Assembly: GCA_040289515.1 (NCBI GenBank)
Contig: PSLI01000004.1
Coordinates: forward strand, 1-64,000
Origin: Candidatus Sysuimicrobiota bacterium
GTDB lineage: Bacteria; Sysuimicrobiota; Sysuimicrobiia; Sysuimicrobiales; Sysuimicrobiaceae
DNA length: 64,000 nt
Reading direction: 5' to 3'
Part shown: positions 29,874 through 44,911 of the stretch, one piece after another
Position numbering within the stretch: position 1 is the stretch's first letter
How the letters are laid out: each line of letters starts with the position of its first letter
Notes under the pieces: generated by a model
What the model was told of the DNA's origin: nothing
Databases searched by the model: none
What the model saw: only the letters and a program-made list of their open reading frames with translations
Translations under genes and position numbers: made by a program

Positions 29874-30550
29874 GGACGATCCTGGTCCTTGCCCCGCACC
29901 CGGACGACGCGGAGATCGCCATGGGCGGCACCATGGCGGTCCTGGTGGCGCAGGGCTGGCGGGTGGTGATGTGCGACCTGACGGACGGTGAACCCACCCC
30001 CGTGGGGACACCCGAGCGCAGACGCCAGGAGGCGGAGCAGGCGGCCCGCATCCTCGGGGTGGAGCGTCAGATCCTGGACCTGCCAAACCGTTTCCTGCTG
30101 GACGGGGTGGAGGCCCGCAAGAAGGTGGCCGCGGTGATCCGCGCGGTGCGGCCGGAGTGGCTGTTTGTGCCGTACTGGGAGGACGCACACCCTGACCACG
30201 TGCAGGCCGCAGCCCTGTGCGAGGCGGCACGGTTTTACGCCAAGCTCACCCACACGGACGTCCCGGGAGAGCCGTGGTACCCGCACCGCGTGGTGCACTT
30301 CTTCTCCACCCACTACCGAATGGTTCGCCGTCCCTCCTTCGTGTTCGACATCAGCGACACCCTGGAGCGCAAAATGGAAAGCCTTCGCGCGTACGAGAGC
30401 CAGTTCGGACCCGAGCGGGGCAAGCAGGCAGTTCTGGAGGCGGTGCTCCACGCGGCTCGCTACTTCGGTTCCCTCGTGGGCGTCCTGTACGGGGAGCCCT
30501 TCCTGCTGCGGGAGGAGCTCGGGGTGCGAAATCTGGAGGCACTGGTGTGA
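29870..30550 (+). CDS. bshB1: PIG-L/BshB1-like N-acetylglucosaminyl deacetylase
   Basis: APHPDDAE..MGGT, DLTDGE, HPDH, YESQF, GEPF. Confidence 0.85.
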   Translation: MRTILVLAPHPDDAEIAMGGTMAVLVAQGWRVVMCDLTDGEPTPVGTPERRRQEAEQAARILGVERQILDLPNRFLLDGVEARKKVAAVIRAVRPEWLFVPYWEDAHPDHVQAAALCEAARFYAKLTHTDVPGEPWYPHRVVHFFSTHYRMVRRPSFVFDISDTLERKMESLRAYESQFGPERGKQAVLEAVLHAARYFGSLVGVLYGEPFLLREELGVRNLEALV

Positions 30551-32079
30551 CCCGGTCCGAAGAACTCTCCCTGCCCACCCGCCACGGGGAGGTGCTGTGC
30601 GTCCCGGAGTTTGGCCGCTGGCTGGAGGTGGCGGAGCAAAACGCCCGCAGGCTGGAGTCCCAGCGGGTGCTGCGGGAGCTGCGGGAGCAGGCCCGGCGCG
30701 AGCTGGTGCAGCGCGCGGGAGCACTGCTGGAGCGCTGGGGCCTGCACCGCCCCGAAGTGGGCGCCGGCCCGTGGGTCGGTACGGGCCACCAGCCCGCCCT
30801 GTACCACCCTGGGATCTGGATCCGCACGTGGGCGGTGGCGGCCTGCCAGCAGCGCGGTGCCGTGGGGGTGCACGTGGGGGTGGACTCGGACGAGTGCGAG
30901 CGTTTCGGAGCGCGGGTTCCCCGCCGGGACGACGGCAGGCTGCGGGTAGTGGAGCGCGTCCTGGCAGAGGGGGGCCGGGACGTGCCCTTCGAGTGCCTGC
31001 CGGCTCCCGCAGAAGAGGCCTGGCGCGCCTTCTGCGCACGCCTTCAGGAGGACGTGGCCACCCTGGGGCTTCCGGAGGTTGAAGGGCGCCTGGCGCGCGC
31101 GGAGCGGGCCGGGCTGGCGAGCTTGGCCCGTGCCCGGCACCTGGGCGAATTCGGGGCCGGCCTGCGCCGGCATCTGGAGCTGGACTGCGCGCCGGTCCGG
31201 TACCTGGAGGTGACCGCCTCGGAGCTTTCTAGAACCCGGGCGTTCGCCCGCTTCGCTAGCTGGATCGCGCAGGACGCAGAGCGCTTCTGGGCATGCCACA
31301 ACCAGGCCCTGGAGGACTACCGGCGCCAGCAGGACCTGCGGTCGCCCGCGCAGCCGTTCCCCAACCTGCGGCGGGAAGGTGGACGGGTGGAACTACCCTT
31401 CTGGCTGGTGCGGGATGGAGTGCGGCAGCCCGTGTTCGTGCAGCCAAACCGTCCTCCCGTGGCCTTCTGCCGGGGTGCGGCGGTGGGAGAGCTGTCAGAG
31501 GAGGGGCTGGAGGGCCTGCGGCCCCGGGCGGTGACCCTCACCCTGTTCCTGCGCCTGGCGGTGTGCGACCTGTTCGTGCACGGGCTGGGAGGTGCCCGGT
31601 ACGACCGGGTTACCGACCGGCTGGTGCGGGAGTTCTTTGACGTGGAACCGCCGCCGTTCGCGGTGCTGACCGCCACCTACCACCTGCCCCTGGCACGGCA
31701 TCCGGATCCCCGGGCCGCGTACCAGACCGCCCAGCGCCTGTGGCAGGACCTCCACCACAACCCGGACCGTCACCTTCCACGGGACGGCGAAGTGGCCAAC
31801 CTGGTGGAGGAGAAGTGGCGGTGCATCCAGGCCTTGGAAGCACCGGGCCTACCCCGCCGGACCCGCCGGGAGCTCACGCAGCGCATCCGGGCCCTCAACG
31901 AGGCGCTCCGGGCCCGCCTGCAGGACCGAATCCGTCAGGTGGAGGCGGAGCTGGAGAGCCTGCGGCGCGACGTGGAAGAACACCAGGTGGCCGCGGACCG
32001 CACCTACCCCTTTTTCTTGTTCGACCCGGAGCTCCTGCGCACGTACTTCCGGGCGAGGGAGGAAGCGCGTTGCCGGTAG
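30547..32079 (+). CDS. Hypothetical protein, distantly BshC-like ligase
   Basis: TGHQP (cf. BshC TGQQ), D.D, HGLGGARYD, C-terminal coiled coil; follows bshB1-like gene. Confidence 0.6.
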   Translation: MTRSEELSLPTRHGEVLCVPEFGRWLEVAEQNARRLESQRVLRELREQARRELVQRAGALLERWGLHRPEVGAGPWVGTGHQPALYHPGIWIRTWAVAACQQRGAVGVHVGVDSDECERFGARVPRRDDGRLRVVERVLAEGGRDVPFECLPAPAEEAWRAFCARLQEDVATLGLPEVEGRLARAERAGLASLARARHLGEFGAGLRRHLELDCAPVRYLEVTASELSRTRAFARFASWIAQDAERFWACHNQALEDYRRQQDLRSPAQPFPNLRREGGRVELPFWLVRDGVRQPVFVQPNRPPVAFCRGAAVGELSEEGLEGLRPRAVTLTLFLRLAVCDLFVHGLGGARYDRVTDRLVREFFDVEPPPFAVLTATYHLPLARHPDPRAAYQTAQRLWQDLHHNPDRHLPRDGEVANLVEEKWRCIQALEAPGLPRRTRRELTQRIRALNEALRARLQDRIRQVEAELESLRRDVEEHQVAADRTYPFFLFDPELLRTYFRAREEARCR

Positions 32080-32783
32080 CACGTCATGCGGAGAGGGTGC
32101 GGGCCTCCCCGGTTTGGGGAACTCGGGCAGCTTCCGGTCCCCCGAGCCCCGTGGTCACGGAGGGGCTGGGCCGGCGTTTTGGGCCCGTGGTGGCGCTGCA
32201 CGACGTCACCCTGCGGGTACAGCAGGGTCAGTGCCTGCTGCTGGTGGGGCCCAACGGCTCCGGGAAGACCACCCTGTTGCGGGTTCTGGCCACCGCGCTG
32301 CGCCCCACGGAGGGACGCGCGTGGGTGTGGGGCTATGAGGTGACCGCGGAAGGGTGGCGGGTGCGAGAGGTGTGCGCGTACCTGGGCACCGCCCCGGGGG
32401 TGTACGGGGCGCTTTCGGGCTTCGAGAACTTACGCCTGGCCGCGGACCTGTGCGGAAAGCCCGTTGGGCGTGTCCCTGAGCTGCTGGCGCGGGTCGGGCT
32501 GATGCCGGCGGCGCACCGGCTGGTGGCCAGCTACAGCCTCGGGATGCGCCGGCGGCTGGCCCTGGCCCGGGCCTTCCTGCAGGAGCCCCTGGTGGCGCTG
32601 TTGGACGAGCCTTTTGTGGGCCTGGATGAGGAGGGTCGGGAGCTGGTGCGGCAGCTGGTGGAGGAGGTCAAAAGCCGCGCTGGGGCCGTGGTTCTGGCCA
32701 CTCACGACGGGGACCGGGCGCGGGGCCTGTACGACCGGGTCGTGTGCCTGGAGGCGGGCAGTTTGCGGGCAGCGGGCGGATGA
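32070..32783 (+). CDS. ccmA: Heme exporter ATP-binding protein CcmA
   Basis: GPNGSGKTT, YSLGMRRR, LLDEP; start uncertain (TTG 32070 or GTG 32151). Confidence 0.88.
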   Translation: MPVARHAERVRASPVWGTRAASGPPSPVVTEGLGRRFGPVVALHDVTLRVQQGQCLLLVGPNGSGKTTLLRVLATALRPTEGRAWVWGYEVTAEGWRVREVCAYLGTAPGVYGALSGFENLRLAADLCGKPVGRVPELLARVGLMPAAHRLVASYSLGMRRRLALARAFLQEPLVALLDEPFVGLDEEGRELVRQLVEEVKSRAGAVVLATHDGDRARGLYDRVVCLEAGSLRAAGG

Positions 32784-33433
32784 GAGCAGCTCGCCGCGTC
32801 CTGGCCCTGGTGCGCAAGGATCTGGTGCTGGAGTGGCGGGGCAGGGACGTGCTGGTGCCCGCGGGTGCCTTCGGGCTCGCGGTGTTGCTGGTGCTGGGCC
32901 TGGTTTCCGGCGGCGGGCCGCAGGACGCGCCCACCTTACTGTGGGTTTCTGTGCTGCTGGCCTCCGTGCTGGCGGCGGGCCGCAGCGCGGAGCGGGAAGG
33001 AGAGGAGGGAACGCTGGAAGTGCTGCTGCTGTACCCGGGCAGCCGCGAGGACCTGTTCTGGGGGCGACACCTGGCCCTGTGCGTGCTGCTGGGAGCGCTG
33101 GCTTTGGGCCTGTGGGCCGCACAGCTGTTCCTGTTCAACGCTCCGGCCCGCGGGTGGCCCGCCGTGCTGCTGGCGGGGACGCTGGCGACAGTGGGGCTGA
33201 GTGCGTCGGGCACCCTGCTGGCGGCCCTGCTGGGCCACGTGCGGGCGGGTCGGCTGCTGTTGCCCTTGCTGTTCTTGCCCACCTCGGTTCCCGTGCTGCT
33301 GGCCGGTGTGCGTCTCACGGAGGCGGCCGCCGCGGGCACCACACTCGGCCCGTGGTGGGGCGTGCTGGTGGTGTTCGACCTGTTGTTCCTGCTGGTGGGT
33401 CCCGTGCTGTTTGAGGTGGCGGTGGAGGGCTAG
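32780..33433 (+). CDS. ccmB: Heme exporter permease CcmB
   Basis: KDL..EWR, E.EEGTLE.L, LLLPLL.LP..VPVL; 6 TM. Confidence 0.9.
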   Translation: MRAARRVLALVRKDLVLEWRGRDVLVPAGAFGLAVLLVLGLVSGGGPQDAPTLLWVSVLLASVLAAGRSAEREGEEGTLEVLLLYPGSREDLFWGRHLALCVLLGALALGLWAAQLFLFNAPARGWPAVLLAGTLATVGLSASGTLLAALLGHVRAGRLLLPLLFLPTSVPVLLAGVRLTEAAAAGTTLGPWWGVLVVFDLLFLLVGPVLFEVAVEG

Positions 33434-34072
33434 GTGCGGGCCTTCGCCATGGGCGCAACGGCGGCGCTGTTGGCCCTGGGGCTGTGGCTGGCCCTGAGAG
33501 CGTCTCCCCCAGACGCTTACCAGGGGGAATACGTGCGGATCATGTACGTGCACGTGCCTGCCGCCGTGTCCAGCTACGCCGCCGCAGCGGTGGCCTGCGT
33601 GAGCGGCGCCCTGTACCTGTGGCGGCGCCGGTCGGAGTACGACGCGTGGGCCCGTGCGGGGGCGGAGCTGGCCAGCTTGTTCGCGGGCCTCACCCTGCTG
33701 ACCGGGATGCTGTGGGGCAAGCCCGTGTGGGGTGTGTGGTGGGCGTGGGATGCCCGGCTGGTCTCCACCGCGGTGCTGTTCCTGCTGTACGTGGGTTGCC
33801 TGCTGGTGCGGGACCTGTCGGAGGATCCGGTGCGCGGCCGCCGCCTGGCGGCGGCTTTGGGCGTGGTGGCCTTCCTAGACGTGCCGCTGGTGCACTACTC
33901 CGTGGTGTGGTTCCGAACGCTGCACCAGGGCCCCTCCATTAGACCTGGAGCCGTGCAGATGGCACCGGAGTTTTTGGCCCCCCTGGCGGTGAACGTGCTG
34001 GCCTACCTGGTGCTGTCGGGCTTCCTCCTGGTAGAACGGGCCCGCCTGGCGCGCCTGGAGGCGGAGCGGTGA
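33434..34072 (+). CDS. ccmC: Heme exporter CcmC
   Basis: YVHVP, WGKPVWGVWWAWDARL (WWD motif), TLHQG. Confidence 0.95.
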   Translation: MRAFAMGATAALLALGLWLALRASPPDAYQGEYVRIMYVHVPAAVSSYAAAAVACVSGALYLWRRRSEYDAWARAGAELASLFAGLTLLTGMLWGKPVWGVWWAWDARLVSTAVLFLLYVGCLLVRDLSEDPVRGRRLAAALGVVAFLDVPLVHYSVVWFRTLHQGPSIRPGAVQMAPEFLAPLAVNVLAYLVLSGFLLVERARLARLEAER

Positions 34073-34197
34073 GGGCTTGGGGGTGGGTGCTGGCCGCGTA
34101 CGGATGCGCGGCCGTGCTGCTCGGAGCTTACGCGTGGCGGTTGTGGCGGCGTCTGGAGCGAGCCTCGGGTGGCCGTGCGAGGGAGGGCGACGCGTGA
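34069..34197 (+). CDS. ccmD: CcmD-like small membrane protein (42 aa, not in ORF track)
   Basis: MRAWGWVLAAYGCAAVLLGAYAWRLWRRLERASGGRAREGDA; GTGA overlaps with both ccmC and ccmE. Confidence 0.75.
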   Translation: MRAWGWVLAAYGCAAVLLGAYAWRLWRRLERASGGRAREGDA

Positions 34198-34595
34198 GGC
34201 GGATGCGCGTGCTGTTGGCGGTGCTCCTGACCGCCGGGTCCCTGGGCTACGTGGTGGCCGGAGGGCTGCGGGAGGCGGTGGTGTACTACCTCACGCCCAC
34301 GGAGGTGCGTTCCATGCGCCCGGAGCCCCACAGGCCCGTACGGGTGGGCGGGCAGGTACTGCCCGGCTCCCTGCGAAGGGAAGGGCCGGAGGTGCGCTTC
34401 ATCCTCTGGGACGGCCAGACCCAGCTGCCCGTACGCTTCCGGGGTACCGTGGAAGGGCTGCTAGCGGAGGCACAGGGCGCCGTGGTGGAGGGCCGGGTGG
34501 TGGAGGGGATCCTCCACGCCCGCACCGTGGTGGTCAAGCACTCGGAGGAGTACACCCCGTCCCGAACTCCGCACGACCGCCCCCGCGGACCGTAA
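34194..34595 (+). CDS. ccmE: Heme chaperone CcmE
   Basis: N-terminal TM, YYLTP, RVGGQV, KHSEEY (HxxxY). Confidence 0.92.
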   Translation: MRRMRVLLAVLLTAGSLGYVVAGGLREAVVYYLTPTEVRSMRPEPHRPVRVGGQVLPGSLRREGPEVRFILWDGQTQLPVRFRGTVEGLLAEAQGAVVEGRVVEGILHARTVVVKHSEEYTPSRTPHDRPRGP

Positions 34596-34648: not shown

Positions 34649-34673
34649 GGCGGGGGCCACCGAGCCCCCGTTT
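34649..34673 (+). terminator. Hairpin/possible terminator between ccmE and the respiratory operon
   Basis: CGGGGGC-caccga-GCCCCCG followed by TTT. Confidence 0.45.
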
Positions 34674-34752
34674 GCGTTCTGGGCCGAGACGAAGAGGAAT
34701 CCGGGCACCGGAAGTCAAAGACACACGCCAGCTCCTCGGTCAGGGAGGCAGG

Positions 34753-35655
34753 TTGCTGCGACGCGAAGCCAGCTGTTCGTGCAACTGCAGGGTCCCAGGG
34801 AGCTTGCGACTCTCTCTGTCGGTGGCGATGGCGGCGTGGGTGCTGGCGGGCTGCCAGCCGTACGTCCGGGTGAGCAGCCCCGTCCGGGAGGTCTACGAGC
34901 CCCTGGAGGGGTTCGCGGTGCGCATGAACTTCATGCCCCGCAAACCCGACGCGGACGGGGGCCGGAAGATCTACGAGGCGCGGTGCGCGGTCTGCCACGG
35001 ACCGCAGGGGCGCGGGGACGGGCCCATGGCCCAGCAGCTCACGGCCCCGGAGAAGAACCCGTACACCGACTTTTTGAGCCTGTTCCGCATCCATCGCAAG
35101 GCGGAACCGTTGCCGAGCCGGCCCGCCCGGTTTGACAACCTGGATCAGATGCGGCTAAACGCCCCCTTCGCTATGTTCGAGACCATCGCCCGCGGGCGTC
35201 CCCACACCGCCATGCCCGGGTTCCAGCACCCCGCCTACGGTGCCACGGACGGCGGCGAGCCGCGCCTACGGGATCAGGAGATCTGGGACGTGCTGTTCTG
35301 GGAGTGGAGCCGCACCACCAGCCGGGAGCGCCTGGTGCAGGGCCGGCGGATCTACAACCAGCTGTGCGCCCGCTGCCACGGCGTAGGAGGGGACGGGAAT
35401 GGGCCGGAGGCGGGCCGCATCCGGCAGCAAGTGTGGACGTGGGCGCGGGGCGTGGGGCCGGGTGTTTTCACGGACCGGGACTGGATGGCGTACCGCAAGC
35501 CCACGGAGCTGTACCAGCGGATTTCAGAAGGGGTGCGGCGGCGAGGGCTGGAGCTGATGCCGGCCTACGCCGACAAGCTGTCGGCGGACCAGATCTGGAC
35601 CGTGGTAGAGTACCTGTGGACGTTCGTGTACACACCCCCGAAGGACCTGCGGTAG
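34753..35655 (+). CDS. Diheme c-type cytochrome, probable lipoprotein
   Basis: LAGC lipobox; CAVCH..AMPGF and CARCH..LMPAY; start uncertain. Confidence 0.88.
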   Translation: MLRREASCSCNCRVPGSLRLSLSVAMAAWVLAGCQPYVRVSSPVREVYEPLEGFAVRMNFMPRKPDADGGRKIYEARCAVCHGPQGRGDGPMAQQLTAPEKNPYTDFLSLFRIHRKAEPLPSRPARFDNLDQMRLNAPFAMFETIARGRPHTAMPGFQHPAYGATDGGEPRLRDQEIWDVLFWEWSRTTSRERLVQGRRIYNQLCARCHGVGGDGNGPEAGRIRQQVWTWARGVGPGVFTDRDWMAYRKPTELYQRISEGVRRRGLELMPAYADKLSADQIWTVVEYLWTFVYTPPKDLR

Positions 35656-35666
35656 GAGGTGGCCGG

Positions 35667-36311
35667 GTGGATCGTCGCACGTTCTTAAAGGCCCTGAGCG
35701 CGCTGCCCGTGGTGGGGGCTGTGGGAGCCTTCCTGGCGCCCTTGCTGCGCTACCTGAAGCCGAACCTGGAACGGGGACTGGGCCTGCCGCAGGGGAAGCT
35801 ACCGCCCGACCTGGCGGAGGGGGACCTCCCCACGGGCGAGCCGCTGCCCATCGCTACCTTGGAGGAGCTGCGGGAACCGTGGTCCAGCAAGTTCTTCGTG
35901 TTCACGCAGAAGTACCCACAGTACACCCCGGAGCTGGCCAAGGCGGCCACGGTGCCGGGGGTGGCCATCAAGCTGCCGTGGAAGCTGCCCTTTCCGGGCT
36001 ACAAGGGAGGGAAGGAGCCCACGGACATCGTGATCTTCTCCCGCATCTGTCCGCACCTGGGCTGCATCTTCAACTACGTGCCCAACTGGCGGGAGGTGAC
36101 GGCGGGCTACGGGGGCTACGTACCGCCGGAGGACCGGCGGCACGGGCTGCTCGCGTGCCCGTGCCACCTGTCCATCTACGATCCCGCGGACCGGGAACTT
36201 CCTGGCCGGGTGCTGTCGGGCCCCGCGCCCCGGCCGCCCCGCTACTTCACCTACGAGATCCGGGGCGGGGTGATCGTGGTCACCGGGGCGGAACCCGGCG
36301 GGATCGCCTGA
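35667..36311 (+). CDS. Rieske [2Fe-2S] subunit of a Rieske/cyt b complex
   Basis: Tat motif DRRTFLK; CPHLGC and CPCHLSIY; GPAPRP. Confidence 0.95.
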   Translation: MDRRTFLKALSALPVVGAVGAFLAPLLRYLKPNLERGLGLPQGKLPPDLAEGDLPTGEPLPIATLEELREPWSSKFFVFTQKYPQYTPELAKAATVPGVAIKLPWKLPFPGYKGGKEPTDIVIFSRICPHLGCIFNYVPNWREVTAGYGGYVPPEDRRHGLLACPCHLSIYDPADRELPGRVLSGPAPRPPRYFTYEIRGGVIVVTGAEPGGIA

Positions 36312-36324
36312 GGGAGCCGGAGCC

Positions 36325-37473
36325 GTGTGGGACCGGTTGCGAGAGTGGTTCCGGGAGCGCAAGGAAAAGCTGGACCTGTTCGACGAGACCCACGTCGACC
36401 GCCAGGACAACCCCCTGTACATCCTCGGCCAGATCGTCTACTTCGCGTGGATCGCCGTGGTGGTAAGCGGCATCCTCCTCATGATCTGGTACGAGCCTAC
36501 CACCCACGGCGCGTACAACTCCATTCTGCGCATCCAGCGGGAGGTGCCCCTGGGTTGGCTGACCCGCGGCGTGCACAAGTACGGCGCGGACATGCTGATC
36601 CTGGCCATCACCCTGCGCATCTACCGGATGTATTTCCTGGGAGAGTACAAACGGCCCAACGAACTGTCGTGGATGATCCTGTTCGGCTCCCTGGTGCTGG
36701 CCATGATCTCCGGGCTCACGGGCTACCTGCTCATCTGGAACCAGCGGGCCTTCTGGGCGGCCAAGGTGGTGCTCACGGTGGCCGTGTACCTGGACCAGCT
36801 CCCCCTGATCGGCCAAACGCGGTTCGGCAGCGCCATCGCCTTCGCCTTCCTGGGCGGGCCGGCGGAGGGGCAGGGAACCCTCACCCGGTTCTACGCCATC
36901 CACTTCGGGATCTCCGCGCTGCTGCTGGTGGCCTCGGAGGTGTACTTCTACTTCACCCGCCGGCGCCGGTTCGTCCTGTCCCCCACGGCCCTGGTGATCC
37001 TGCTGGCTATGCTGGTGGTAACGAGCTACGTGTTCCCCGCAGAGATGGGCCGCCGGGCCGACCCCAACCGCACGCCCCTGCCCATCCTGTCCGACTGGTA
37101 CTTCCTGGCCCTGTACCAGTACGTGAAGTATACCCCGCCCCTGTGGGCGGGCCTGGGCCCCGGGCTTTTGATCGCTTACGGCATGCTGGTCCCCTTTTTG
37201 GACCGCAGCAAGGGCCGCAGGCCCTCCGAGCGCCCCTTCTTCACGGTGGTGGGGGTCATGGCCCTGACGTACTTCCTCGTGTTCACGGCCCTCATCCTGT
37301 TCAACATCGCGGTGATCGGCCGGGATCCCCACGTGGTCCTACTGGTGACCGCGGCGACTTTGACCCTGGGCCTGGTGCTGGAGTTCCGCTACCGGCGACG
37401 GAAGAAGCTGGCGGAGCTCGCCGCACCGACTCCCGCGCCGCGCGCGGCGCCAGCTCGGGCCGCGGCGGGGTGA
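36325..37473 (+). CDS. Cytochrome b (unsplit, about 8 TM), only the two heme-bL His ligands retained
   Basis: RGVH, TGYLL.W.Q, TLTRFYAIH, Qo-like ILSDWYFL; bH positions are Arg and Tyr. Confidence 0.92.
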   Translation: MWDRLREWFRERKEKLDLFDETHVDRQDNPLYILGQIVYFAWIAVVVSGILLMIWYEPTTHGAYNSILRIQREVPLGWLTRGVHKYGADMLILAITLRIYRMYFLGEYKRPNELSWMILFGSLVLAMISGLTGYLLIWNQRAFWAAKVVLTVAVYLDQLPLIGQTRFGSAIAFAFLGGPAEGQGTLTRFYAIHFGISALLLVASEVYFYFTRRRRFVLSPTALVILLAMLVVTSYVFPAEMGRRADPNRTPLPILSDWYFLALYQYVKYTPPLWAGLGPGLLIAYGMLVPFLDRSKGRRPSERPFFTVVGVMALTYFLVFTALILFNIAVIGRDPHVVLLVTAATLTLGLVLEFRYRRRKKLAELAAPTPAPRAAPARAAAG

Positions 37474-37480
37474 GGGGGCG

Positions 37481-37744
37481 TTGGAAGTCGTGCGGTTCGC
37501 GGCAAGCTTCGGTGTGGCCGTGTTGAGCCTGCACGGAGCCTGGCAGGCATTCGGGCTGGCTTGGGCGGACCCACGGGCGGAGCGCTGGCTCGTCCTGGGC
37601 GTGTACCTGGCCGCCCTGCTGGCCTCAGGAGCATGGGCGGGCTACCTCGTCTACGCCGCGGACCGCAGGGCGGGACGGGTGCGGCGACGGGTGGGGCTGT
37701 ACGAGCGGTGGCTGGCAACGCCTCGGGGAGGGAGGGGGCCGTGA
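37481..37744 (+). CDS. Small 2-TM membrane protein
   Basis: In-operon ORF after GAGGGGG, two hydrophobic segments. Confidence 0.65.
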   Translation: MEVVRFAASFGVAVLSLHGAWQAFGLAWADPRAERWLVLGVYLAALLASGAWAGYLVYAADRRAGRVRRRVGLYERWLATPRGGRGP

Positions 37745-37941
37745 GGAAGGACCGCAGCACATGGCACTTCGCCCTGGCCGGTTTCCTGGCGGTGCTGGCC
37801 CTAGCCGGAGTGGCCCTTATGGTGTACGGGGAGTGGTTTGACCAGCGGCTGGTGGCCTCCGGGGCCCTGGGCGTGATCCTGGTTTTGTACGCGGCCATCG
37901 TAGTGCTGTTCCGGAAGGCGGGTCTCACCGCGGAGGAGTAG
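37741..37941 (+). CDS. Small 2-TM membrane protein (66 aa)
   Basis: GTGA overlap, GGAGG RBS, two hydrophobic segments. Confidence 0.7.
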   Translation: MRKDRSTWHFALAGFLAVLALAGVALMVYGEWFDQRLVASGALGVILVLYAAIVVLFRKAGLTAEE

Positions 37942-37942
37942 G

Positions 37943-39118
37943 GTGTACCGACGGCTGCTTTTGAGCCTGCAGAGCGCCACCCTGAGGCTGGACACCGTCC
38001 TAAACCGCGTCCTGCCCCAGGACTTCAACCCCCTGTACTACACGGGCGGGCTTGCGAACCTGTTCCTCACCATCCTGGTGGTGTCGGGGATCCTCATTTT
38101 CCTGTACTACGAGCCCAGCCTGGAGGGCGCGTACGCCTCCGTGGAGTTCCTGACCCGGGACGTGCCCTACGGGGTGGTGTTCCGGGGGATCCACCGGTAC
38201 GCCGCGGACGCCTACATGGTGGCGATCCTGCTGCACCTGTTCCGCAACTGGTTCACGGACCGCTACCGGGAGGCGCGGGACAGCCAGTGGCTGTCGGGCA
38301 TGTTCCTGCTGGTGGTCTCGGGCTTTGCGGGCTTCACGGGCTACCTGCTGGTGTGGGACGAGCGAGCCCAGCTGCTTACAAGCCTCACGGCGCAGGCCCT
38401 ACGGTCGGTGCCCCTGGTGGGAGGCTGGCTGGCCCGGGTGTTCCTGGGCGGGCCGGGTGTGAGCGACACGACCCTGTCCCGGTTCCTGTACCTGCATGTG
38501 GGGCCCGCCATGACCGTGTACGTGCTCCTGTGGTGGCACTACGTACGCCTGCGCCACCCCAAGATCTGGCCTCCCGCGGTGTGGGTGCTGTTCAGCCTGG
38601 GCCTGCTGTTCATCCTCGCCTCCGCGCTGCCCGCGGCCAGCGGCCGTCCCGCGCAGCCGGGCGCGACCCCGGGGGGGTTCGCGGTGGATTGGTTCTTCCT
38701 CTGGCCGTACGTGCTCGCCCGGTGGCTGGCGCCAGCCTGGGCCATGGTCCTGGTGGGAGCCCTTGTGGCGTACGGCATGGTCATCCCCTACACCCTACGG
38801 GAGACGCCCGAGCAGCGCGGCCTGCGGGCCCTGGGCCAGGCGGTGGTGGTGGAGGAGAACTGCACCGGCTGCGAGCTGTGCTACTACGACTGCCCGTACA
38901 ACGCCATCTACATGGTACCCAGTCCCTACCCCGGCAAGAGCCGGGCCGCGGCCAACCGCAAGCTGCTGGCGGTGGTGGTGGACTCCCGGTGTGTGGAGTG
39001 CGGGATCTGCATCGGCGCCTGCCCGTTCGAGGCGCTGGAGCTGCCCAGGATGCTGGAAAAGGACGTGCAGCAGAGAATCCGGCGGGGCGCCCAGGTGGAG
39101 GCGCCCGTCCCTTCGTGA
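37943..39118 (+). CDS. Second cytochrome b fused to a C-terminal 2x[4Fe-4S] ferredoxin domain
   Basis: Four His (38192, 38234, 38495, 38537); VDWFFL; CTGCELCYYDCP and CVECGICIGACP. Confidence 0.92.
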   Translation: MYRRLLLSLQSATLRLDTVLNRVLPQDFNPLYYTGGLANLFLTILVVSGILIFLYYEPSLEGAYASVEFLTRDVPYGVVFRGIHRYAADAYMVAILLHLFRNWFTDRYREARDSQWLSGMFLLVVSGFAGFTGYLLVWDERAQLLTSLTAQALRSVPLVGGWLARVFLGGPGVSDTTLSRFLYLHVGPAMTVYVLLWWHYVRLRHPKIWPPAVWVLFSLGLLFILASALPAASGRPAQPGATPGGFAVDWFFLWPYVLARWLAPAWAMVLVGALVAYGMVIPYTLRETPEQRGLRALGQAVVVEENCTGCELCYYDCPYNAIYMVPSPYPGKSRAAANRKLLAVVVDSRCVECGICIGACPFEALELPRMLEKDVQQRIRRGAQVEAPVPS

Positions 39119-39127
39119 GGCGCAGCC

Positions 39128-39562
39128 ATGGGGACAGCACCGGAGCGCACCCCGCAAGCCAATCCCCAAGGACCGGCGCGGGTGGTGGGGTTTTTGTGTG
39201 ACTGGGCGGTGCGCAGCGAGGGACTGCTGAACGCGGACGACACCCTGGTGGGCATGCCCCACGTGACCGTGATCCGGGTGCCCTGTTCCGGTTTCGTAAA
39301 GCCCGCGTGGCTGGAGCTGGCCCTGCGCAGTGGTGCTGCGGGCACCTTCGTGTGCGGGTGCCCCATGGGCGACTGCCTGAACCGGGAGGGTAACTGGATC
39401 ATGGAGGGCCGCATCGACCAGCTGCGCAAGCGGCTGAGCCGCCAGAAGGTGGATCCCGACCGGGTGGCCTTTTTCGCCTTCGGGCTGCACGAGCGGGAGG
39501 CCTTCCTTCAAGCCGTGGCGGAGTTCGTGAACAGGCTCGCCGGATCCGGAGGGAACCGGTGA
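39128..39562 (+). CDS. MvhD/FlpD-like [2Fe-2S] protein
   Basis: GFLCDW, IRVPCSG, GCPMGDC..REGN, V.P.RV pattern of MvhD. Confidence 0.85.
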   Translation: MGTAPERTPQANPQGPARVVGFLCDWAVRSEGLLNADDTLVGMPHVTVIRVPCSGFVKPAWLELALRSGAAGTFVCGCPMGDCLNREGNWIMEGRIDQLRKRLSRQKVDPDRVAFFAFGLHEREAFLQAVAEFVNRLAGSGGNR

Positions 39563-39689: not shown

Positions 39690-41084
39690 ATGCTGGTGTG
39701 GATGTTCACGGACGAGCGGTGGAGTTCTGCCCGCAGGTTCCTGTACGCGGGCACCCTGTGGGCGCTGGTGGCCCTGGCGTACGAGGCCCTGGCGGCCGCC
39801 CAGCGGGCGTGGCCGGCCCTGCTGTCGGAGTTTCCATGGGCTTCCCACGGGCGGGTGGTGGCCTTAAGCCACGACCTGTGGGTTTTCGGCTTTTTGTCCC
39901 AGCTGCTGGTGGCCTCGGCCCTGCGGGTGATGGGGCAGACGGACCGGGAGGGGATCTGGAGCGAGCCCGTAGCGCACCTGGCTGTTTGGCTGTGGAACCT
40001 AGCCCAGGCCCTGAGCTGGTGGTGGCTGTCGGTGGGCTGGACCCGGGGAAGGCCGCTGGCGGAGGCCCCGTGGCCGGTGGACGGGCTGCGTGTGCTGGCC
40101 GCTTTGGCGCTGTGGTGGGTGGTGCGCAACAGCCTGGTTCGGTCGTCCCGGCGGGAAGCTGGCTTGGCCCTGGTGGCGGTGGCCTTCGCGGGTCTGCCGC
40201 TGGTGCTGGTGCTGGGCAAGGGGCTGTTCTCGCCCTTCGACAACCCTTACCACGGCCTCCTGGACGCCCTGAGCCAGGCCTTCCTGCGGGCGGGCTTGGT
40301 GTGGCTGTGGCTAGTACCTCTGGCGGGCGGTGTGTCTTTGTACGTGCTGTCCGCCCTTACGGGCCGGCCGGGTCTGTCGGAGGGCATGGGCCTTTCGGCG
40401 GTGGTGGGGCTGGTGAGCTTTGGCGCCCTGGCGGGGCCTGCGGAGTTTGTATGGGGCCCGGTCCCCTTCTGGGTGCAGACCGTGGGCACCGTGGCGCGGG
40501 GCCTGCTGCTGCTGCCCGCGGCGACCCTCCTGGCCGGCGTGGTTCGGTCCCTGGACGGCCATTGGCGCAGCCTGGGGAACCACCCGGGCGTGGTGCTCAC
40601 CCTGGCGGGATGGCTCGCGGTGTTCTGCGGGGCGGCGGCGGACGCCCTCGCCTCCCTGGTGGGGCCCAGCCGGCTGGTGCACCTGTCCCTGTGGGGTGAG
40701 GGTGTTCGGGTGCTCCTGCTGACCGGCGCGGGTGCGGTGGCCGCCGGATGCGTGTACCTGTTGACCCCTCATGTGCTGGGCCGATCCCTGGTCAGCAGGG
40801 CTGCCGCGTGGCGCCACCTCTGGCTGGTGGTGGTGGGATGGTCGCTTTCCGCCCCCTTCCTTCTGCTGGGCGGGTTGGTGCAGGGTGCGGTGTGGGTCAC
40901 GGGCACAGTCCCCTTCGCGCACGCGGTGCAGGCCGTGCGGCCCTTGCTGGGGGGGGGCTTTGTGGGCCTGCTGGTGGCGTGGGCCGCGCAGGGAGTGTTC
41001 GCGTGGAATGTGTTCCTGACCGCGGACTCCGGGGAGCCCGTGCCCGCCGCAGAGCAGGAGCTGGCCGCGGTGGCGGGGTCCTGA
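39690..41084 (+). CDS. CcoN-like (cbb3 subunit I fold) membrane protein lacking heme/Cu histidines
   Basis: GR..L..VFGF, GRPLAE.PWPVD, G..DAL.Q, AGP, VP.W.Q, H...W landmarks of CcoN; ligand His positions replaced. Confidence 0.8.
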   Translation: MLVWMFTDERWSSARRFLYAGTLWALVALAYEALAAAQRAWPALLSEFPWASHGRVVALSHDLWVFGFLSQLLVASALRVMGQTDREGIWSEPVAHLAVWLWNLAQALSWWWLSVGWTRGRPLAEAPWPVDGLRVLAALALWWVVRNSLVRSSRREAGLALVAVAFAGLPLVLVLGKGLFSPFDNPYHGLLDALSQAFLRAGLVWLWLVPLAGGVSLYVLSALTGRPGLSEGMGLSAVVGLVSFGALAGPAEFVWGPVPFWVQTVGTVARGLLLLPAATLLAGVVRSLDGHWRSLGNHPGVVLTLAGWLAVFCGAAADALASLVGPSRLVHLSLWGEGVRVLLLTGAGAVAAGCVYLLTPHVLGRSLVSRAAAWRHLWLVVVGWSLSAPFLLLGGLVQGAVWVTGTVPFAHAVQAVRPLLGGGFVGLLVAWAAQGVFAWNVFLTADSGEPVPAAEQELAAVAGS

Positions 41085-41099
41085 GGTGCAGGAGGTGTC

Positions 41100-41561
41100 G
41101 TGGTGAGGGATCCCGTAGCGCACCTGGTGCGACTGGCGGTGGCGGCCGTGCTGTGCGGGTTCGTGGCCACCGTGCTCCTGCCAGCGTTGGACCCCGCGGT
41201 GCGCACGGCGCGGGCAGCGCCCCTGTCGGCGCAGGCGGCGCGGGGACGGTGGGTGTACGCCCGGGAGGGGTGTGCGGCCTGTCACACCCAGCAGGTGCGT
41301 ACGGTGGAGGCGGGGTTCGGCATGGTGCGCCGGAGGGGCGACGTGGGAGAGGCTTCCTCGCCAAGCCAGTACGCGGGGCAGGACCCGGCCCTGTTGGGGC
41401 GGCTGCGGATGGGGCCGGACCTGACGCACGTGGCCTCCCGTGCCTCCGCGGAAGAGCTGCGTTCGCTAGTTCGGTCCGGCACGGGAGGGATGCCCGCGTA
41501 CCGGCACCTGCCCGATCCGGAACTGGCGGACCTCGTGGCGTACCTGCTGACCCTGCGATAG
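41100..41561 (+). CDS. CcoO-like monoheme cytochrome c
   Basis: TM anchor; GR.VY.REGCAACHTQQVR, R.GPDL, MPAY. Confidence 0.88.
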   Translation: MVRDPVAHLVRLAVAAVLCGFVATVLLPALDPAVRTARAAPLSAQAARGRWVYAREGCAACHTQQVRTVEAGFGMVRRRGDVGEASSPSQYAGQDPALLGRLRMGPDLTHVASRASAEELRSLVRSGTGGMPAYRHLPDPELADLVAYLLTLR

Positions 41562-41569
41562 GAGGAAGG

Positions 41570-42109
41570 ATGGAGGCCCAAACGCCGCGACCGTCCCGCT
41601 GGCTGGCGCTGCTGTACGTGCTGCTGCCTCTGTGGGCAGTGACGTACCTGTTCGTGGCGGGAGGACTGGTGGCTCCGGAGGTCCGGCCGGTGGCCCGGAA
41701 CGTGGAGGGCGTCTCGGCGGGTGTCGGCGCGGCACCGGACGGGTCCGAGCAGGTGCTGGGGATCCTCGAGGTGGTGCCTGAGGACGCGCGGGACGACCAG
41801 CCGCCCCGTCCGGTTACCGCGGCCATGCTGGCGCAGGCGAAGGCACGGTACGACACCCTGTGCGCCGTCTGCCACGGCCCGGAAGGCCGGGGCGACGGCC
41901 CCGCGGGCGCGGCTCTTAACCCCAAGCCGGTCAACTTCCATTTCCGCGCTTTCCAGGAGCGCATGCCCGTGGGTGCCACGCACTGGGTGATCAAGAACGG
42001 CCTGGGTAACACCGCCCGCCGCAGCGGGATGCCCGCCTTTGGCCAGCTGCCTGACGACCAGATCTGGGCCCTGGTGGAGTACATACGGCGGCTGGGCCGC
42101 CGGCCATGA
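41570..42109 (+). CDS. Membrane-anchored monoheme cytochrome c (CcoP-like anchor)
   Basis: RWLALLY..LWAVTYL anchor; CAVCH, GMPAF. Confidence 0.88.
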   Translation: MEAQTPRPSRWLALLYVLLPLWAVTYLFVAGGLVAPEVRPVARNVEGVSAGVGAAPDGSEQVLGILEVVPEDARDDQPPRPVTAAMLAQAKARYDTLCAVCHGPEGRGDGPAGAALNPKPVNFHFRAFQERMPVGATHWVIKNGLGNTARRSGMPAFGQLPDDQIWALVEYIRRLGRRP

Positions 42110-43089
42110 GCGCTCCCGCCAACCCCGACGTGGCCCTGGCGTCCGCGTATGCACCGGTTCGGGAGGACTTGGAGCGCCTGCAGGCCCTCCTGCAGGAGGA
42201 GCTCGCGTCCCACGACCCCTTCCTGCGCGAGCTGGTGTCCCACGTGCTGCAGACGAGGGGCAAGATGGTGCGGCCGGCTCTGGCGTTCCTCTGCGCGCGG
42301 CTCGCGGGCGGAGGAGGCGCCCACCGGGACCTGGTGGCCGCGGCGGTGGAGCTCATCCACGTGGCCAGCCTGATCCACGACGACGTCATCGACGAGGCGG
42401 ACCGGCGCCGGGGCCAGGCCACCCCCAACGCCCGCTGGGGCAACCACGTGGCGGTGCTTCTGGGCGACTACCTGTTCAGCAAGGCTTTCCACCTCCTCAG
42501 CCGGGTGGGCCGGGACGACGTGGCCAGCCGGGTGGCGTTCGCCACCGTGCGCATGAGTCAGGCGGAGCTGCTGCAGGTGAAGTATGGCAGTACCCCCCAC
42601 ACGGACGAGTCGGTGTACTTCGCCATCGTGGAGGGGAAGACCGCCCAGCTGGTCTCCTCCGCGTGTGCGGGAGGGGTCCTGGTGGGCGGGGGTGACGGCG
42701 GCCTGGCGGATCGGCTTGGCACCTTTGGGCTGCACTGGGGAGTAGCCTTCCAGATCACCGACGACACCCTGGACCTCACCAGCGACCCGGAGGTCCTGGG
42801 CAAGCCCATCGGTAGCGACGTGCGGGGGGGCAAGGTCACCCTACCCCTCATCCACGCCCTGCGCCACGCGGACTCCCAAGACCGCCAGCGGCTGGAGGCT
42901 TGGATCCGCTTGGGGGAGCTGGAACCCTTGCGGCAGGCCCTGGAGCGGTCCGGATCCCTCGCCTACGCCCTGGAGGTGGCCCGGCAGCATGCCCGCAGGG
43001 CCCTGCGGATCCTGGACACCCTGCCCAGCAGCCCCGAACGCGACAGCCTCGCAGCCCTTACGGAGTTCGTGGTCTCCCGCCACCATTAG
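42106..43089 (+). CDS. Polyprenyl diphosphate synthase (HepT/IspB-like)
   Basis: GKMVRP, HDDVID..RRG, GKTA, FQITDDTLD. Confidence 0.93.
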   Translation: MSAPANPDVALASAYAPVREDLERLQALLQEELASHDPFLRELVSHVLQTRGKMVRPALAFLCARLAGGGGAHRDLVAAAVELIHVASLIHDDVIDEADRRRGQATPNARWGNHVAVLLGDYLFSKAFHLLSRVGRDDVASRVAFATVRMSQAELLQVKYGSTPHTDESVYFAIVEGKTAQLVSSACAGGVLVGGGDGGLADRLGTFGLHWGVAFQITDDTLDLTSDPEVLGKPIGSDVRGGKVTLPLIHALRHADSQDRQRLEAWIRLGELEPLRQALERSGSLAYALEVARQHARRALRILDTLPSSPERDSLAALTEFVVSRHH

Positions 43090-43133
43090 CGGCAGCTGGT
43101 GGAACGCCGGCGCCTCCGCTACACTGCCTGTCG

Positions 43134-44333
43134 GTGGACGGGCGCAGGTGGGTGCGGGTGCTCGCCGGGCCGCTGCGGAAGCTGCGGGAGGCCATGGTGT
43201 CCTTCGCCGTGGCCACTACCTCCCGGCACCTGGAGGCCAACCGAGACGCGGTGGTGCGCCGGTGGCGGGCGTGGCTCCATGGGCGGGCGGCGCGGTACGC
43301 GGAGCACCCCGACCTTGCGGAGCGCTGGGGTGCGCAGACAGTGGATCTCTTGGTGCGGGTGATGCGGGCCCAAGGCGAGGCGGAGGGTTCGGAAGCGCGG
43401 GACCGGGTGTTCGAGTACGCGCACCGCGTGGCCACTGAACAGCTGGCCCTGGGCTTCCGGCTGGAGGAGATCCTGCAGGCTTTGAGCCTGCTGCGCAGCA
43501 GCGTGTCCTGGCAGGTGCAGGTCATGTTGAGCCGGCGGCTGTGGGTGGCCTTCCCGCCCGACGTCATGCGGGCCACCCAGCGGGTCCACGAGGCCATCGA
43601 CCTGCAGATGCTGGCCATTGGGCAGGCGTACCTGGAGACCCGGGATCGGGTGATCCGCCAGAAGCAGCGGGACCTGGAGGAGAGCAACGCCAAGCTGCGG
43701 ACCCTGCTCCGGGAGATGCACCACCGGATCAAGAACAACCTGCAAACCCTGGCGGATCTTTTGTACCTGGAGACCCTGGGCGCGGAGGAACCCGCCCGCA
43801 GGAGCCTGCTGGACAGCATCGGCCGGGTGAAGAGCATCGCCGCAGTCCACCAGATGCTGTCCGCAGACCACATCGAGGCGGTGGAGGTGCGGCGGCTGGC
43901 GGAACGCATCGGGGAGATTCTGGGGCGGGACCTGACCCGCGGGGGCCGTGCGGTGCGCGTGGAGGTACGGGGTCCGGAGGTGTGGCTGCCCAGCAAGCAG
44001 GCCACCGCCCTGGCCCTGGTACTTACCGAGCTGCTGCACAACGCCACCGAGCACGCCTTCCCCCACGGCCGGGGCCGGGTGGCGGTGGAGCTGGGACGGG
44101 AGGCGGGTGAGGTGTGGGTGCGGGTGCGCGACGACGGTGTGGGGCTCCCTGCGGACTTCTCCGTGGAGCGGGACGGCCACCTGGGGCTGCGCATCGTGCA
44201 GGACCTGGTGAGCCGGGAGCTGCGGGGAACGTTCGCCCTGCGGTGCGAGGCTGGCACGGTGGCGGAGGTGCGGTTCCGGCCGCCGCAGGCGGGCGAGGGT
44301 GCGGAACGGGTGGTGGGGGAGGTGCGGGTGTGA
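43134..44333 (+). CDS. Soluble sensor histidine kinase (HisKA_2, PdtaS/EutW-like) with helical RsbRD_N-like input domain
   Basis: EMHHRIKNNLQ, ELLHNATEHAF, DDGVG, LGL.IV; no TM; start uncertain. Confidence 0.9.
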   Translation: MDGRRWVRVLAGPLRKLREAMVSFAVATTSRHLEANRDAVVRRWRAWLHGRAARYAEHPDLAERWGAQTVDLLVRVMRAQGEAEGSEARDRVFEYAHRVATEQLALGFRLEEILQALSLLRSSVSWQVQVMLSRRLWVAFPPDVMRATQRVHEAIDLQMLAIGQAYLETRDRVIRQKQRDLEESNAKLRTLLREMHHRIKNNLQTLADLLYLETLGAEEPARRSLLDSIGRVKSIAAVHQMLSADHIEAVEVRRLAERIGEILGRDLTRGGRAVRVEVRGPEVWLPSKQATALALVLTELLHNATEHAFPHGRGRVAVELGREAGEVWVRVRDDGVGLPADFSVERDGHLGLRIVQDLVSRELRGTFALRCEAGTVAEVRFRPPQAGEGAERVVGEVRV

Positions 44334-44911
44334 AGGACCGGCTGCGCATCCTCATCGCGGACGACGAGGCCATCCGCGTCATGACCTTGCGCACGCAGCT
44401 GCGGGCCCTGGGGTTTGAGGTGGTGGCGGAGGCCACCAACGGCCAGGAGGCGGTGGACCTGGCCGACCGCCACCAGCCGGATTTGGCCATCCTGGACATC
44501 AAGATGCCGGGGCTGGACGGGATCGCGGCCGCGCGGGAGATCACCGCCCGCCGCCCCGTCCCCGTGATCTTGCTCACCGCCTACAGCGAACCGGAGCTGG
44601 TGGAGCGGGCCACGGAGGCGGGGGTGTTCGCGTACCTGGTGAAGCCCGTGAGCGAGGAGGATCTGCTGCCCACCATCCTGCTGGCGCGGGCGCGGTTTGA
44701 GGAGTTCCGGCTGCTGCGCAGGGAGGTGGAGGACCTGCGGGAGGCCCTGGAGGCCCGGAAGATCATCGAGCGGGCCAAGGGGATCCTCATGAAGCGGCTG
44801 GGGATCAGCGAGGTGGAGGCCTTCCGCCGCATGCAGGTGCAGAGCCAGAAGGAGAACAAGAAGCTGGTGGAGATCGCGCGGGCCATCGTGACCGCCCACG
44901 GGGTGCTGTAG
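44330..44911 (+). CDS. ANTAR-domain response regulator (PdtaR/EutV-like)
   Basis: ADDE, LDIKMP, LTAY, YLVKP; RKIIERAKGILM..ISE.EAF. Confidence 0.95.
   Translation: MKDRLRILIADDEAIRVMTLRTQLRALGFEVVAEATNGQEAVDLADRHQPDLAILDIKMPGLDGIAAAREITARRPVPVILLTAYSEPELVERATEAGVFAYLVKPVSEEDLLPTILLARARFEEFRLLRREVEDLREALEARKIIERAKGILMKRLGISEVEAFRRMQVQSQKENKKLVEIARAIVTAHGVL

Follow-up and report, generated by a model that had tools for sequence, protein, structure and literature searches.

What does a full-length homologue of CcoN, the catalytic subunit of cbb3-type oxidases, do when none of its heme and copper ligands is left? The question is raised by positions 39690–42109 of a 64,000-nucleotide stretch of DNA (the window; positions 1 to 64,000 of contig PSLI01000004.1, assembly GCA_040289515.1) from a Candidatus Sysuimicrobiota bacterium. 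The source genome comprised 1.99 Mb in 76 contigs and was 96.66% complete; the G+C content of the window was about 70%. Open reading frames (ORFs) and their translations showed that the interval consisted of three co-oriented genes, not one:

39690–41084, + strand: pCcoN, a CcoN homologue with 12 helices; 464 amino acids, ATG start, no internal stops
41100–41561, + strand: CcoO-like monoheme cytochrome c; 153 amino acids, N-terminal membrane helix, CAACH and GGMP motifs
41570–42109, + strand: membrane-anchored monoheme class I cytochrome c, ActE-like; 179 amino acids, CAVCH and SGMPAFG motifs

We consider it fairly probable that pCcoN is not an oxidase but a non-catalytic scaffold for c-type cytochromes, tied to a complex III operon.

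Loss of the heme and copper ligands

pCcoN matched Pfam COX1 with 69.5 bits (cut-off 34.8), residues 14–420 aligning with profile positions 3–427 of 436, and scored 78.9 bits with the NCBIfam ccoN equivalog TIGR00780, well under its cut-off of 583.15. HMMER aligned pCcoN to the solved CcoN chains 9g6b_A and 3mk7_A (P. stutzeri) at E ~5e-21. The alignment with 3mk7_A reproduced four motif substitutions that an earlier note on this DNA had described by comparison with CcoN motifs: GRLRPLHTN was replaced by GRVVALSHD (H60 to S, the following residue being H), QWWYGHN by QAFLRAG (H207 to A), AGPHHL by AGPAEF (H257 to A, H258 to E) and WTIGHVH by WGEG-VRV (H345 at a gap or V, H347 at R or V). The column of the cross-link Tyr251 was occupied by G. 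H60, H345, H347 and Y251 were numbered by counting along this alignment, and we take their roles in CcoN to be those of further ligands and, for Y251, of the cross-linked tyrosine. The numbering of the CuB ligands H207, H257 and H258 follows passages of PMC3578206.

A search of 5.8 billion proteins with pCcoN gave 25 hits, 22 of which were 460–471 amino acids long and 45–100% identical. Ligand columns, and all column counts given below, were read from hmmalign alignments to a profile, A1, of 22 sequences (19 orthologues and three distant hits). None of the six heme/CuB ligand columns contained His in any of 23 orthologues, and all six did so in each of 20 ligand-complete relatives in the same alignment, indicating a loss beyond chance. 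In the orthologues the six columns were occupied by A/S/G; A/Q/S/G/T; A/S/G/V; E/A/Q; a mixed set; and V/L/A/I/T, and the tyrosine column by G, A or T, where 95% of the ligand-complete relatives had Y. No His, Met or Cys was shared by all 23 orthologues at any position, and no His was invariant in the 22 sequences of A1.

The earlier note had described the first histidine as displaced by one residue. The displacement was seen in pCcoN itself, but a histidine stood there in only 4 of the 23 orthologues; His61 is thus not a conserved substitute ligand, and it was rejected as a replacement for H60. The loss of histidines across orthologues, which the note had asked to be checked, was complete, and its expectation that automated annotation would mislead was borne out: pCcoN and several of its orthologues carry the name “cbb3-type cytochrome c oxidase subunit I” in public sources.

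Fold of pCcoN

The AlphaFold2 (AF2) model of pCcoN, made from 105 sequences, had a predicted local distance difference test (pLDDT) value of 95 and a predicted template modelling (pTM) score of 0.94. Foldseek matched it to the CcoN chains 3mk7_A, 8smr_E, 9g6b_A, 9g83_t and 6xkw_n with template modelling (TM) scores of 0.89–0.91 and root mean square deviations (rmsd) of 2.3–2.8 Å, at 21–23% identity; the match to 3mk7_A extended over 460 columns (TM 0.91, rmsd 2.5 Å). Scores were lower for NorB chains (0.81–0.82) and for A/B-type subunit I chains (0.71–0.81), indicating that the fold was complete and specifically CcoN-like. Together with the near end-to-end COX1 match, this agreed with the earlier description of a full-length CcoN homologue of about 12 transmembrane segments and no frameshift.

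The two cytochromes and their predicted contact with pCcoN

The product of 41100–41561 matched Pfam FixO with 49 bits (cut-off 29.6; profile positions 7–116 of 219) and the CcoO chains 8smr_F, 9g6b_B and 3mk7_B at E ~1e-7. By these matches it is a true member of the CcoO/NorC family, and its CxxCH motif was invariant in 10 of 10 sequences. The product of 41570–42109 matched Pfam Cytochrome_CBB3 with 46 bits; its nearest solved relatives were 6h5l_B (a Kuenenia cytochrome) and the monoheme ActE subunits 6lod_E, 8k9e_E and 6f0k_E of alternative complex III (ACIII). CxxCH and MP motifs were present in all 10 aligned sequences. With a single CxxCH, ActE-type nearest relatives and only 25.3 bits against TIGR00782 ccoP (cut-off 179.95), its identity as a diheme CcoP was rejected. 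Of the intact CcoO- and CcoP-like partners claimed earlier, the first was therefore correctly named, and both kept their heme-binding motif, but the second is a monoheme, ActE-like protein.

Three runs predicting a complex of pCcoN and the CcoO-like cytochrome on custom alignments gave an ipSAE of 0.89, whereas none of three controls exceeded 0.00; the ipSAE mark applied was attained by 116 of 157 solved complexes and by 2 of 215 mismatched pairs. Contacts agreed by at least 92% between runs, and the pLDDT of the partner was at least 79. Such a predicted score means that the pair still looks like CcoN–CcoO, and is not proof of binding. Eighty-six residues of pCcoN were invariant in 19 sequences and spatially patterned, being enriched in the predicted interface (24/77 vs 62/387; Fisher odds ratio 2.4, p 0.003).

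Where conservation now sits

Fifty-three columns were at least 90% conserved in the 20 ligand-complete relatives, and 18 of them, counted by hand from the column table, remained in the pCcoN clade. These were mainly Gly, Pro and Trp, plus R55, E125 and Y356; the lost columns included the six His, the Tyr, R57, E122, W160, T209, Y217, N283, Y311, Q317 and H331. Topology was assigned from the helices of the AF2 model and the membrane orientation that we assume for CcoN. Of the positions in periplasmic loops, 41% were at least 95% conserved in the pCcoN clade; along the helices the share was 28% for the periplasmic third, 15.5% for the middle third and 15.7% for the cytoplasmic third, and cytoplasmic loops stood at 19%. 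In ligand-complete relatives this share was flat, 8–14% over all zones. The gradient indicated that constraint had shifted from the catalytic core to the periplasmic face. Among the functions offered in the earlier note, that of a scaffold is the one favoured by this conservation and by the predicted CcoO-type interface.

Distribution and selection

Among 94 species genomes of the phylum, pCcoN matches (E ≤ 1e-30) were obtained from 14, namely all 12 of the window's family and one each from two other families; four further families gave none in 34, 22, 23 and 1 genomes. The frame was free of internal stops in 14 of 14 matching genomes, at 38–77% identity. The order cytochrome b, cytochrome b-Fer4, MvhD, pCcoN, CcoO-like, cytochrome c was the same in 9 of 9 genome loci, two of them cut by contig ends further out; a Rieske gene was syntenic in all nine, and a diheme cytochrome c gene in the eight extending that far. 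The core from cytochrome b-Fer4 to the last cytochrome c was kept in a more distant genome (G035, locus L014).

For the closest pairs, with synonymous divergence (dS) of 0.17–0.27, the ratio of nonsynonymous to synonymous divergence (dN/dS, NG86 method) was 0.09–0.16 for pCcoN, 0.05–0.06 for cytochrome b and 0.21–0.28 for the CcoO-like gene. Thus, as the earlier note had left to be decided, pCcoN was under purifying selection and not in decay, with constraint about two- to three-fold relaxed relative to cytochrome b. NG86 estimates are rough at 70% GC, and pairs with dS above ~0.7, probably saturated, were excluded as evidence. The dN/dS comparison omits polyprenyl synthase for the L005/L007 pairs, and L008 for cytochrome b, cytochrome b-Fer4, cytochrome c and polyprenyl synthase. 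pCcoN fits the concept of a pseudoenzyme or relic subunit, that is, a homologue without catalytic residues yet under purifying selection.

The operon around pCcoN

The three genes end a long same-strand gene set around complex III genes, which begins with ccmB, ccmC and ccmE, followed by a diheme cytochrome c. The members between the ccm genes and pCcoN were:

34672–35655, + strand: diheme cytochrome c heading the complex III genes; 73 bits for Pfam Cytochrom_C, 69.6 bits for Cytochrome_CBB3, in two stretches
35667–36311 (start approximate), + strand: Rieske iron-sulfur protein; twin-arginine translocation (TAT) signal RRTFLK, CPHLGC...CPCH read by eye
36325–37473, + strand: full-length cytochrome b (b6 + subunit IV type); Pfam Cytochrome_B 102 bits, Cytochrom_B_C 32 bits
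37760–37941, + strand: small ORF flanked by the two cytochrome b genes; two membrane helices predicted, start uncertain
37943–39118, + strand: fusion of a cytochrome b (its N-terminal four-helix domain) with a ferredoxin domain of 2x[4Fe-4S] type; 108 bits for Pfam Cytochrome_B, and matches to Fer4 families
39128–39562, + strand: MvhD/FlpD-like iron-sulfur protein, directly upstream of pCcoN; Pfam FlpD 87.6 bits

No Pfam Rieske match at E ≤ 0.01 was found for the protein of 35667–36311. In the gap 37474–37942, the frame 37760–37941 alone still matched the distant loci L011 (E 8e-15) and L012 (E 2e-10), and is probably an unannotated small subunit. The cytochrome b-2x[4Fe-4S] and MvhD/FlpD pair (37943–39562, + strand) was more than 75% conserved across the family and could provide an electron route from the membrane to a cytoplasmic acceptor.

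Upstream, at 26729–34595 (+ strand), ALAD and class-III aminotransferase genes of heme biosynthesis and ccmB/ccmC/ccmE directly preceded the respiratory genes; heme, ccm and respiratory genes on one strand suggest a heme/cytochrome supra-operon. Downstream of the three genes (42106–44911, + strand) were polyprenyl synthase, histidine kinase and ANTAR response regulator genes. The polyprenyl synthase start overlapped the stop of the last cytochrome gene by 4 nt, and these genes trailed the trio in all eight loci reaching that far; quinone-tail synthesis and RNA-level regulation may be tied to the operon.

Oxidase genes elsewhere in the genome

Two further COX1 genes, scoring 499.5 and 454.7 bits, were found on other contigs of the source genome and appear to be of the A-type. 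Of the cbb3 maturation genes ccoGHIS, the two looked for, FixS (PF03597) and FixH (PF05751), were not found in the 96.66% complete genome; nor was a second FixO gene, and no ligand-complete CcoN able to partner pCcoN was seen. The suggestion in the earlier note that pCcoN partners a catalytic paralogue encoded elsewhere thus found no support, the other COX1 genes being these two high-scoring copies and FixO having no second copy. In the text available from the phylum's paper, coxABC alone is named as terminal oxidase (PMC11604079).

Ligand-poor relatives of CcoN at large

Among 1.84 billion representative proteins the A1 profile matched 2911 at E ≤ 1e-3, of which 429 passed E ≤ 1e-30. For 173 aligned sequences, of which 24 came from two earlier searches and 149 were further representatives among the best 150, we counted His in the six ligand columns:

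0 His: 103 sequences
1 His: 33 sequences
2 His: 10 sequences
3 His: 1 sequence
4 His: 1 sequence
5 His: 5 sequences
6 His: 20 sequences

The sample was biased towards ligand-less proteins because the query profile was itself ligand-less. Ligand-poor CcoN relatives are widespread.

Trees were made with FastTree (quick) and IQ-TREE (LG+G4), some rows being compositionally odd. In a quick IQ-TREE tree of 64 sequences, ligand columns removed, the window's clade was sister to P0028 (L014, G035:C473 2889–4271) with an SH-aLRT support of 99. This protein, of which one sequence is known, retained two ligand-column histidines (H60 and H207), had Met in the H347 column and was without the H257, H258 and H345 ligands; its gene stood among cytochrome b-Fer4, MvhD, CcoO-like and cytochrome c genes in the same order as in the window. 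It may represent an intermediate stage of decay. In a well-supported clade, the 635–658-amino-acid CcoN relatives P0034, P0045, P0047 and P0066 had five of six His and a Met at the H347 column; this pattern suggests low-spin heme ligation by His and Met, the oxidase being otherwise complete.

The IQ-TREE tree had a second large clade of ligand-poor proteins, nested among other ligand-complete ones. Forcing all 42 ligand-poor rows into one clade was rejected (delta lnL 172.7, p-AU 0.00015, approximately unbiased test), the tested group having been defined after the tree was seen. At E ≤ 1e-10 this second clade comprised 509 clusters around P0040; named members were Verrucomicrobiae and Methylomirabilota, and the sources were soil and freshwater metagenomes. 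The locus order was ActB, ActC, ActD, ActE, ActF, a ~120-amino-acid ORF, CcoN-like, FixO and monoheme cytochrome c. At loci with room for the gene, FixO was present in 44/44, cytochrome c in 33/33, the small ORF in 67/70, ActF in 39/40, ActD in 30/30 and ActC in 24/24. Among 61 near-full-length sequences of this ACIII-linked clade, 44 had no His in the ligand columns, 13 had one and 4 had two, and members were likewise labelled “cbb3-type subunit I” by their sources. Since separate ligand-poor clades stand at complex III and at ACIII operons, the same “dead” trio was apparently retained on two independent occasions, behind quinol:cytochrome c oxidoreductases of unrelated kinds.

Two further features of the ACIII-linked clade (L015–L094) were seen. 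The ~120-amino-acid upstream ORF (e.g. L039 5632–5994) had no Pfam match, and the CcoN-like protein (L039 5998–7512) carried a near-invariant C-terminal Cys motif, CAExCGC.

Proposed role of pCcoN and alternatives

As a relic of C-family heme-copper oxidase (HCO) subunit I, pCcoN keeps the 12-helix fold but would bind neither heme b, heme b3 nor CuB; without these cofactors it could reduce neither O2 nor NO. Selection would retain its periplasmic face, which would hold the membrane helix and heme domain of the CcoO-like cytochrome as CcoN holds CcoO, the monoheme cytochrome c of the third gene probably being held at the same face. The trio would then be a “dead” module of cbb3 shape, a fixed c-heme station, serving as electron exit or docking arm of the complex formed by the Rieske, cytochrome b, cytochrome b-FeS and MvhD products of the operon. 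Electrons might pass on to the two other COX1-type oxidases of the genome or to another periplasmic acceptor. Fold, ligand loss, purifying selection, synteny, the conservation gradient and, as a prediction, the CcoN–CcoO-type interface come from the analysis itself; that the trio associates physically with subunits of complex III, and which way and to what end electrons flow, is what we infer.

A more far-reaching version, which we hold only tentatively and regard as rather unlikely, makes the “dead” cbb3 module an obligatory structural arm of an undescribed quinol-electron-splitting machine of Rieske, two cytochromes b, FeS and MvhD proteins. One quinol electron would go to the high-potential periplasmic c-heme station held by pCcoN and the other to a low-potential cytoplasmic iron-sulfur outlet; the oxidase would have been “killed” at least twice in complex III/ACIII supercomplexes and kept as a c-heme platform.

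Several points weigh against pCcoN as a scaffold. Motifs at the cytoplasmic N- and C-termini were conserved too (invariant D8, W11, S12, R15, R16 and F17; N440 to G448), which a purely periplasmic scaffold leaves unexplained. pCcoN and the CcoO-like gene evolve fastest in the operon (45–77% identity vs 75–95% for cytochrome b); this would suit a role under loose constraint, and also one that is weak or dispensable. In one orthologue (L012) another residue replaced the Met in the heme motif of the CcoO-like protein; the rest of the 10 had it. CcoN–CcoO is a textbook pair, and the predicted complex may echo memory of solved cbb3 structures. Association with the Rieske and cytochrome b subunits is proposed from gene order, and the scaffold model draws on sequence analysis and predicted structure.

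The conserved cytoplasmic end motifs also fit an ion- or proton-conducting or conformational coupling role, in which pCcoN would be a channel or pump element of a complex III-type assembly. The whole 12-helix bundle was retained (TM 0.91), D62, K177 and Y356, in or near helices, were invariant or nearly so, H376 was present in 22 of 23 orthologues, and E125 and R55 were common to ligand-poor and ligand-complete relatives. However, 35 of the 53 conserved columns were lost, the polar T209, Y217, N283, Y311, Q317 and H331 among them; the middle and cytoplasmic thirds of the helices were the least conserved, the opposite of what is expected of a transmembrane pathway; and without a redox centre the coupling site is gone. 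We therefore regard such a role as unlikely.

Instead of a permanent subunit, pCcoN might be a factor for assembly, stability or regulation, such as a placeholder determining which terminal oxidase can dock to complex III. This would agree with its being encoded with complex III genes, the two high-scoring COX1 genes being on other contigs, and with its evolving faster than the core subunits. It was, however, always co-encoded with two dedicated cytochromes c, for which binding is predicted, and the recurrence of the trio behind ACIII in an independent clade is a better fit to a stoichiometric module; we give this explanation little weight.

Binding of heme or metal by ligands other than histidine, for a different redox reaction or a transmembrane electron wire, is improbable. 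The outgroup P0028, with its two His and one Met in ligand columns, makes partial cofactor binding conceivable in relatives, and the former heme b site of the orthologues is not simply hydrophobic, position 340 being Arg in 15 of 23 and D62 invariant. Against this, the six columns offer no consistent ligating residue: Ala, Ser, Gly, Val, Leu, Gln or Glu predominate, with differences even between close relatives; none of the 23 sequences' His, Met or Cys is invariant; and R57 and E122, 95–100% conserved in ligand-complete relatives, were lost.

A decaying gene with stop codons still to come would account for pCcoN being the least conserved large gene of the operon with all catalytic residues gone, but deserves next to no credence, and the pseudogene reading was rejected, given frames intact in 14 of 14 genomes, dN/dS of 0.09–0.16 at low divergence, spatially patterned invariant residues and a highly confident AF2 model.

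Significance

We see in pCcoN a C-family HCO subunit I that has become non-catalytic, in a lineage linked with a Rieske/two-cytochrome-b/FeS/MvhD operon. Ligand-less clades, having arisen at least twice, widen the known uses of the HCO subunit I scaffold, and a relic oxidase behind both kinds of operon, complex III and ACIII, offers a way to test how electron-exit cytochromes are fixed in supercomplexes. In this phylum, pCcoN is also relevant to what the unusual cytochrome b-FeS/MvhD pair does. The ccoN gene is widely taken as a sign of high-affinity O2 respiration under microaerobic conditions, and public sources give hundreds of ligand-poor relatives the name “cbb3-type cytochrome c oxidase subunit I”. 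Calls of high-affinity respiration based on ccoN would therefore be wrong for ligand-less lineages. If supercomplex oxidases were indeed “killed” yet kept, a sizeable share of metagenomic “ccoN” markers of O2 respiration would not be oxidases.

Comparison with known systems

pCcoN resembles CcoN (P. stutzeri 3MK7/5DJQ; P. aeruginosa 8SMR; R. capsulatus 6XKW) in its 12-helix fold and length class, and has in common with it the GR-motif residue R55, E125 and many structural residues (Gly, Pro and Trp). As in cbb3 systems, a gene for a CcoO-type monoheme cytochrome lies directly downstream, with a similar interface predicted. Unlike CcoN, pCcoN is without the six His and the cross-link Tyr and is encoded inside a Rieske/cytochrome b operon; unlike CcoNOQP, its trio is without a diheme CcoP. 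NorB of cNOR, the nitric oxide reductase that depends on cytochrome c (3O0R, 4XYD), likewise combines the HCO fold with a monoheme partner of NorC/CcoO type. NorB retains the six His and adds Glu ligands for FeB, whereas pCcoN has none of the six and a fold nearer to CcoN (TM 0.91) than to NorB (0.81–0.82).

In the text available from Murali et al. 2024, active-site histidines are completely conserved except in gNOR (PMC11214002). A search of the full-text literature, with subscription papers and supplements outside its reach, found no description of a ligand-less CcoN family. The cytochrome b-Fer4 and MvhD pair directly upstream of pCcoN resembles the “PDWF-FeS” cytochrome b clade (Kao & Hunte 2014), in which a 4Fe-4S domain occurs together with a domain or neighbour of MvhD type and for which Magnetospirillum and Turneriella are named (PMC4122944); the excerpts of that account dealing with the clade do not mention a CcoN-like gene.

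A parallel in gene order is offered by the ACIII-linked ligand-poor proteins, whose trio likewise ends a quinol:cytochrome c oxidoreductase operon and whose ligand columns are mostly empty. They differ from pCcoN in forming a separate clade, in having ACIII as partner instead of Rieske/cytochrome b, and in their extra ~120-amino-acid ORF and C-terminal Cys motif. In PMC5928083, ACIII gene clusters are described as followed by oxygen-reductase clusters, and ACIII-caa3 and ACIII-aa3 supercomplexes are described there from R. marinus and F. johnsoniae, respectively. Like the bc1-cbb3 and ACIII-oxidase supercomplexes (6XKW, 8SMR, 9G83), the pCcoN operon couples a complex III-type enzyme to an HCO module. 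The oxidases of the known supercomplexes are catalytically complete, whereas the HCO module of pCcoN itself lacks a redox centre, and what looks functional is confined to the c-heme subunits.

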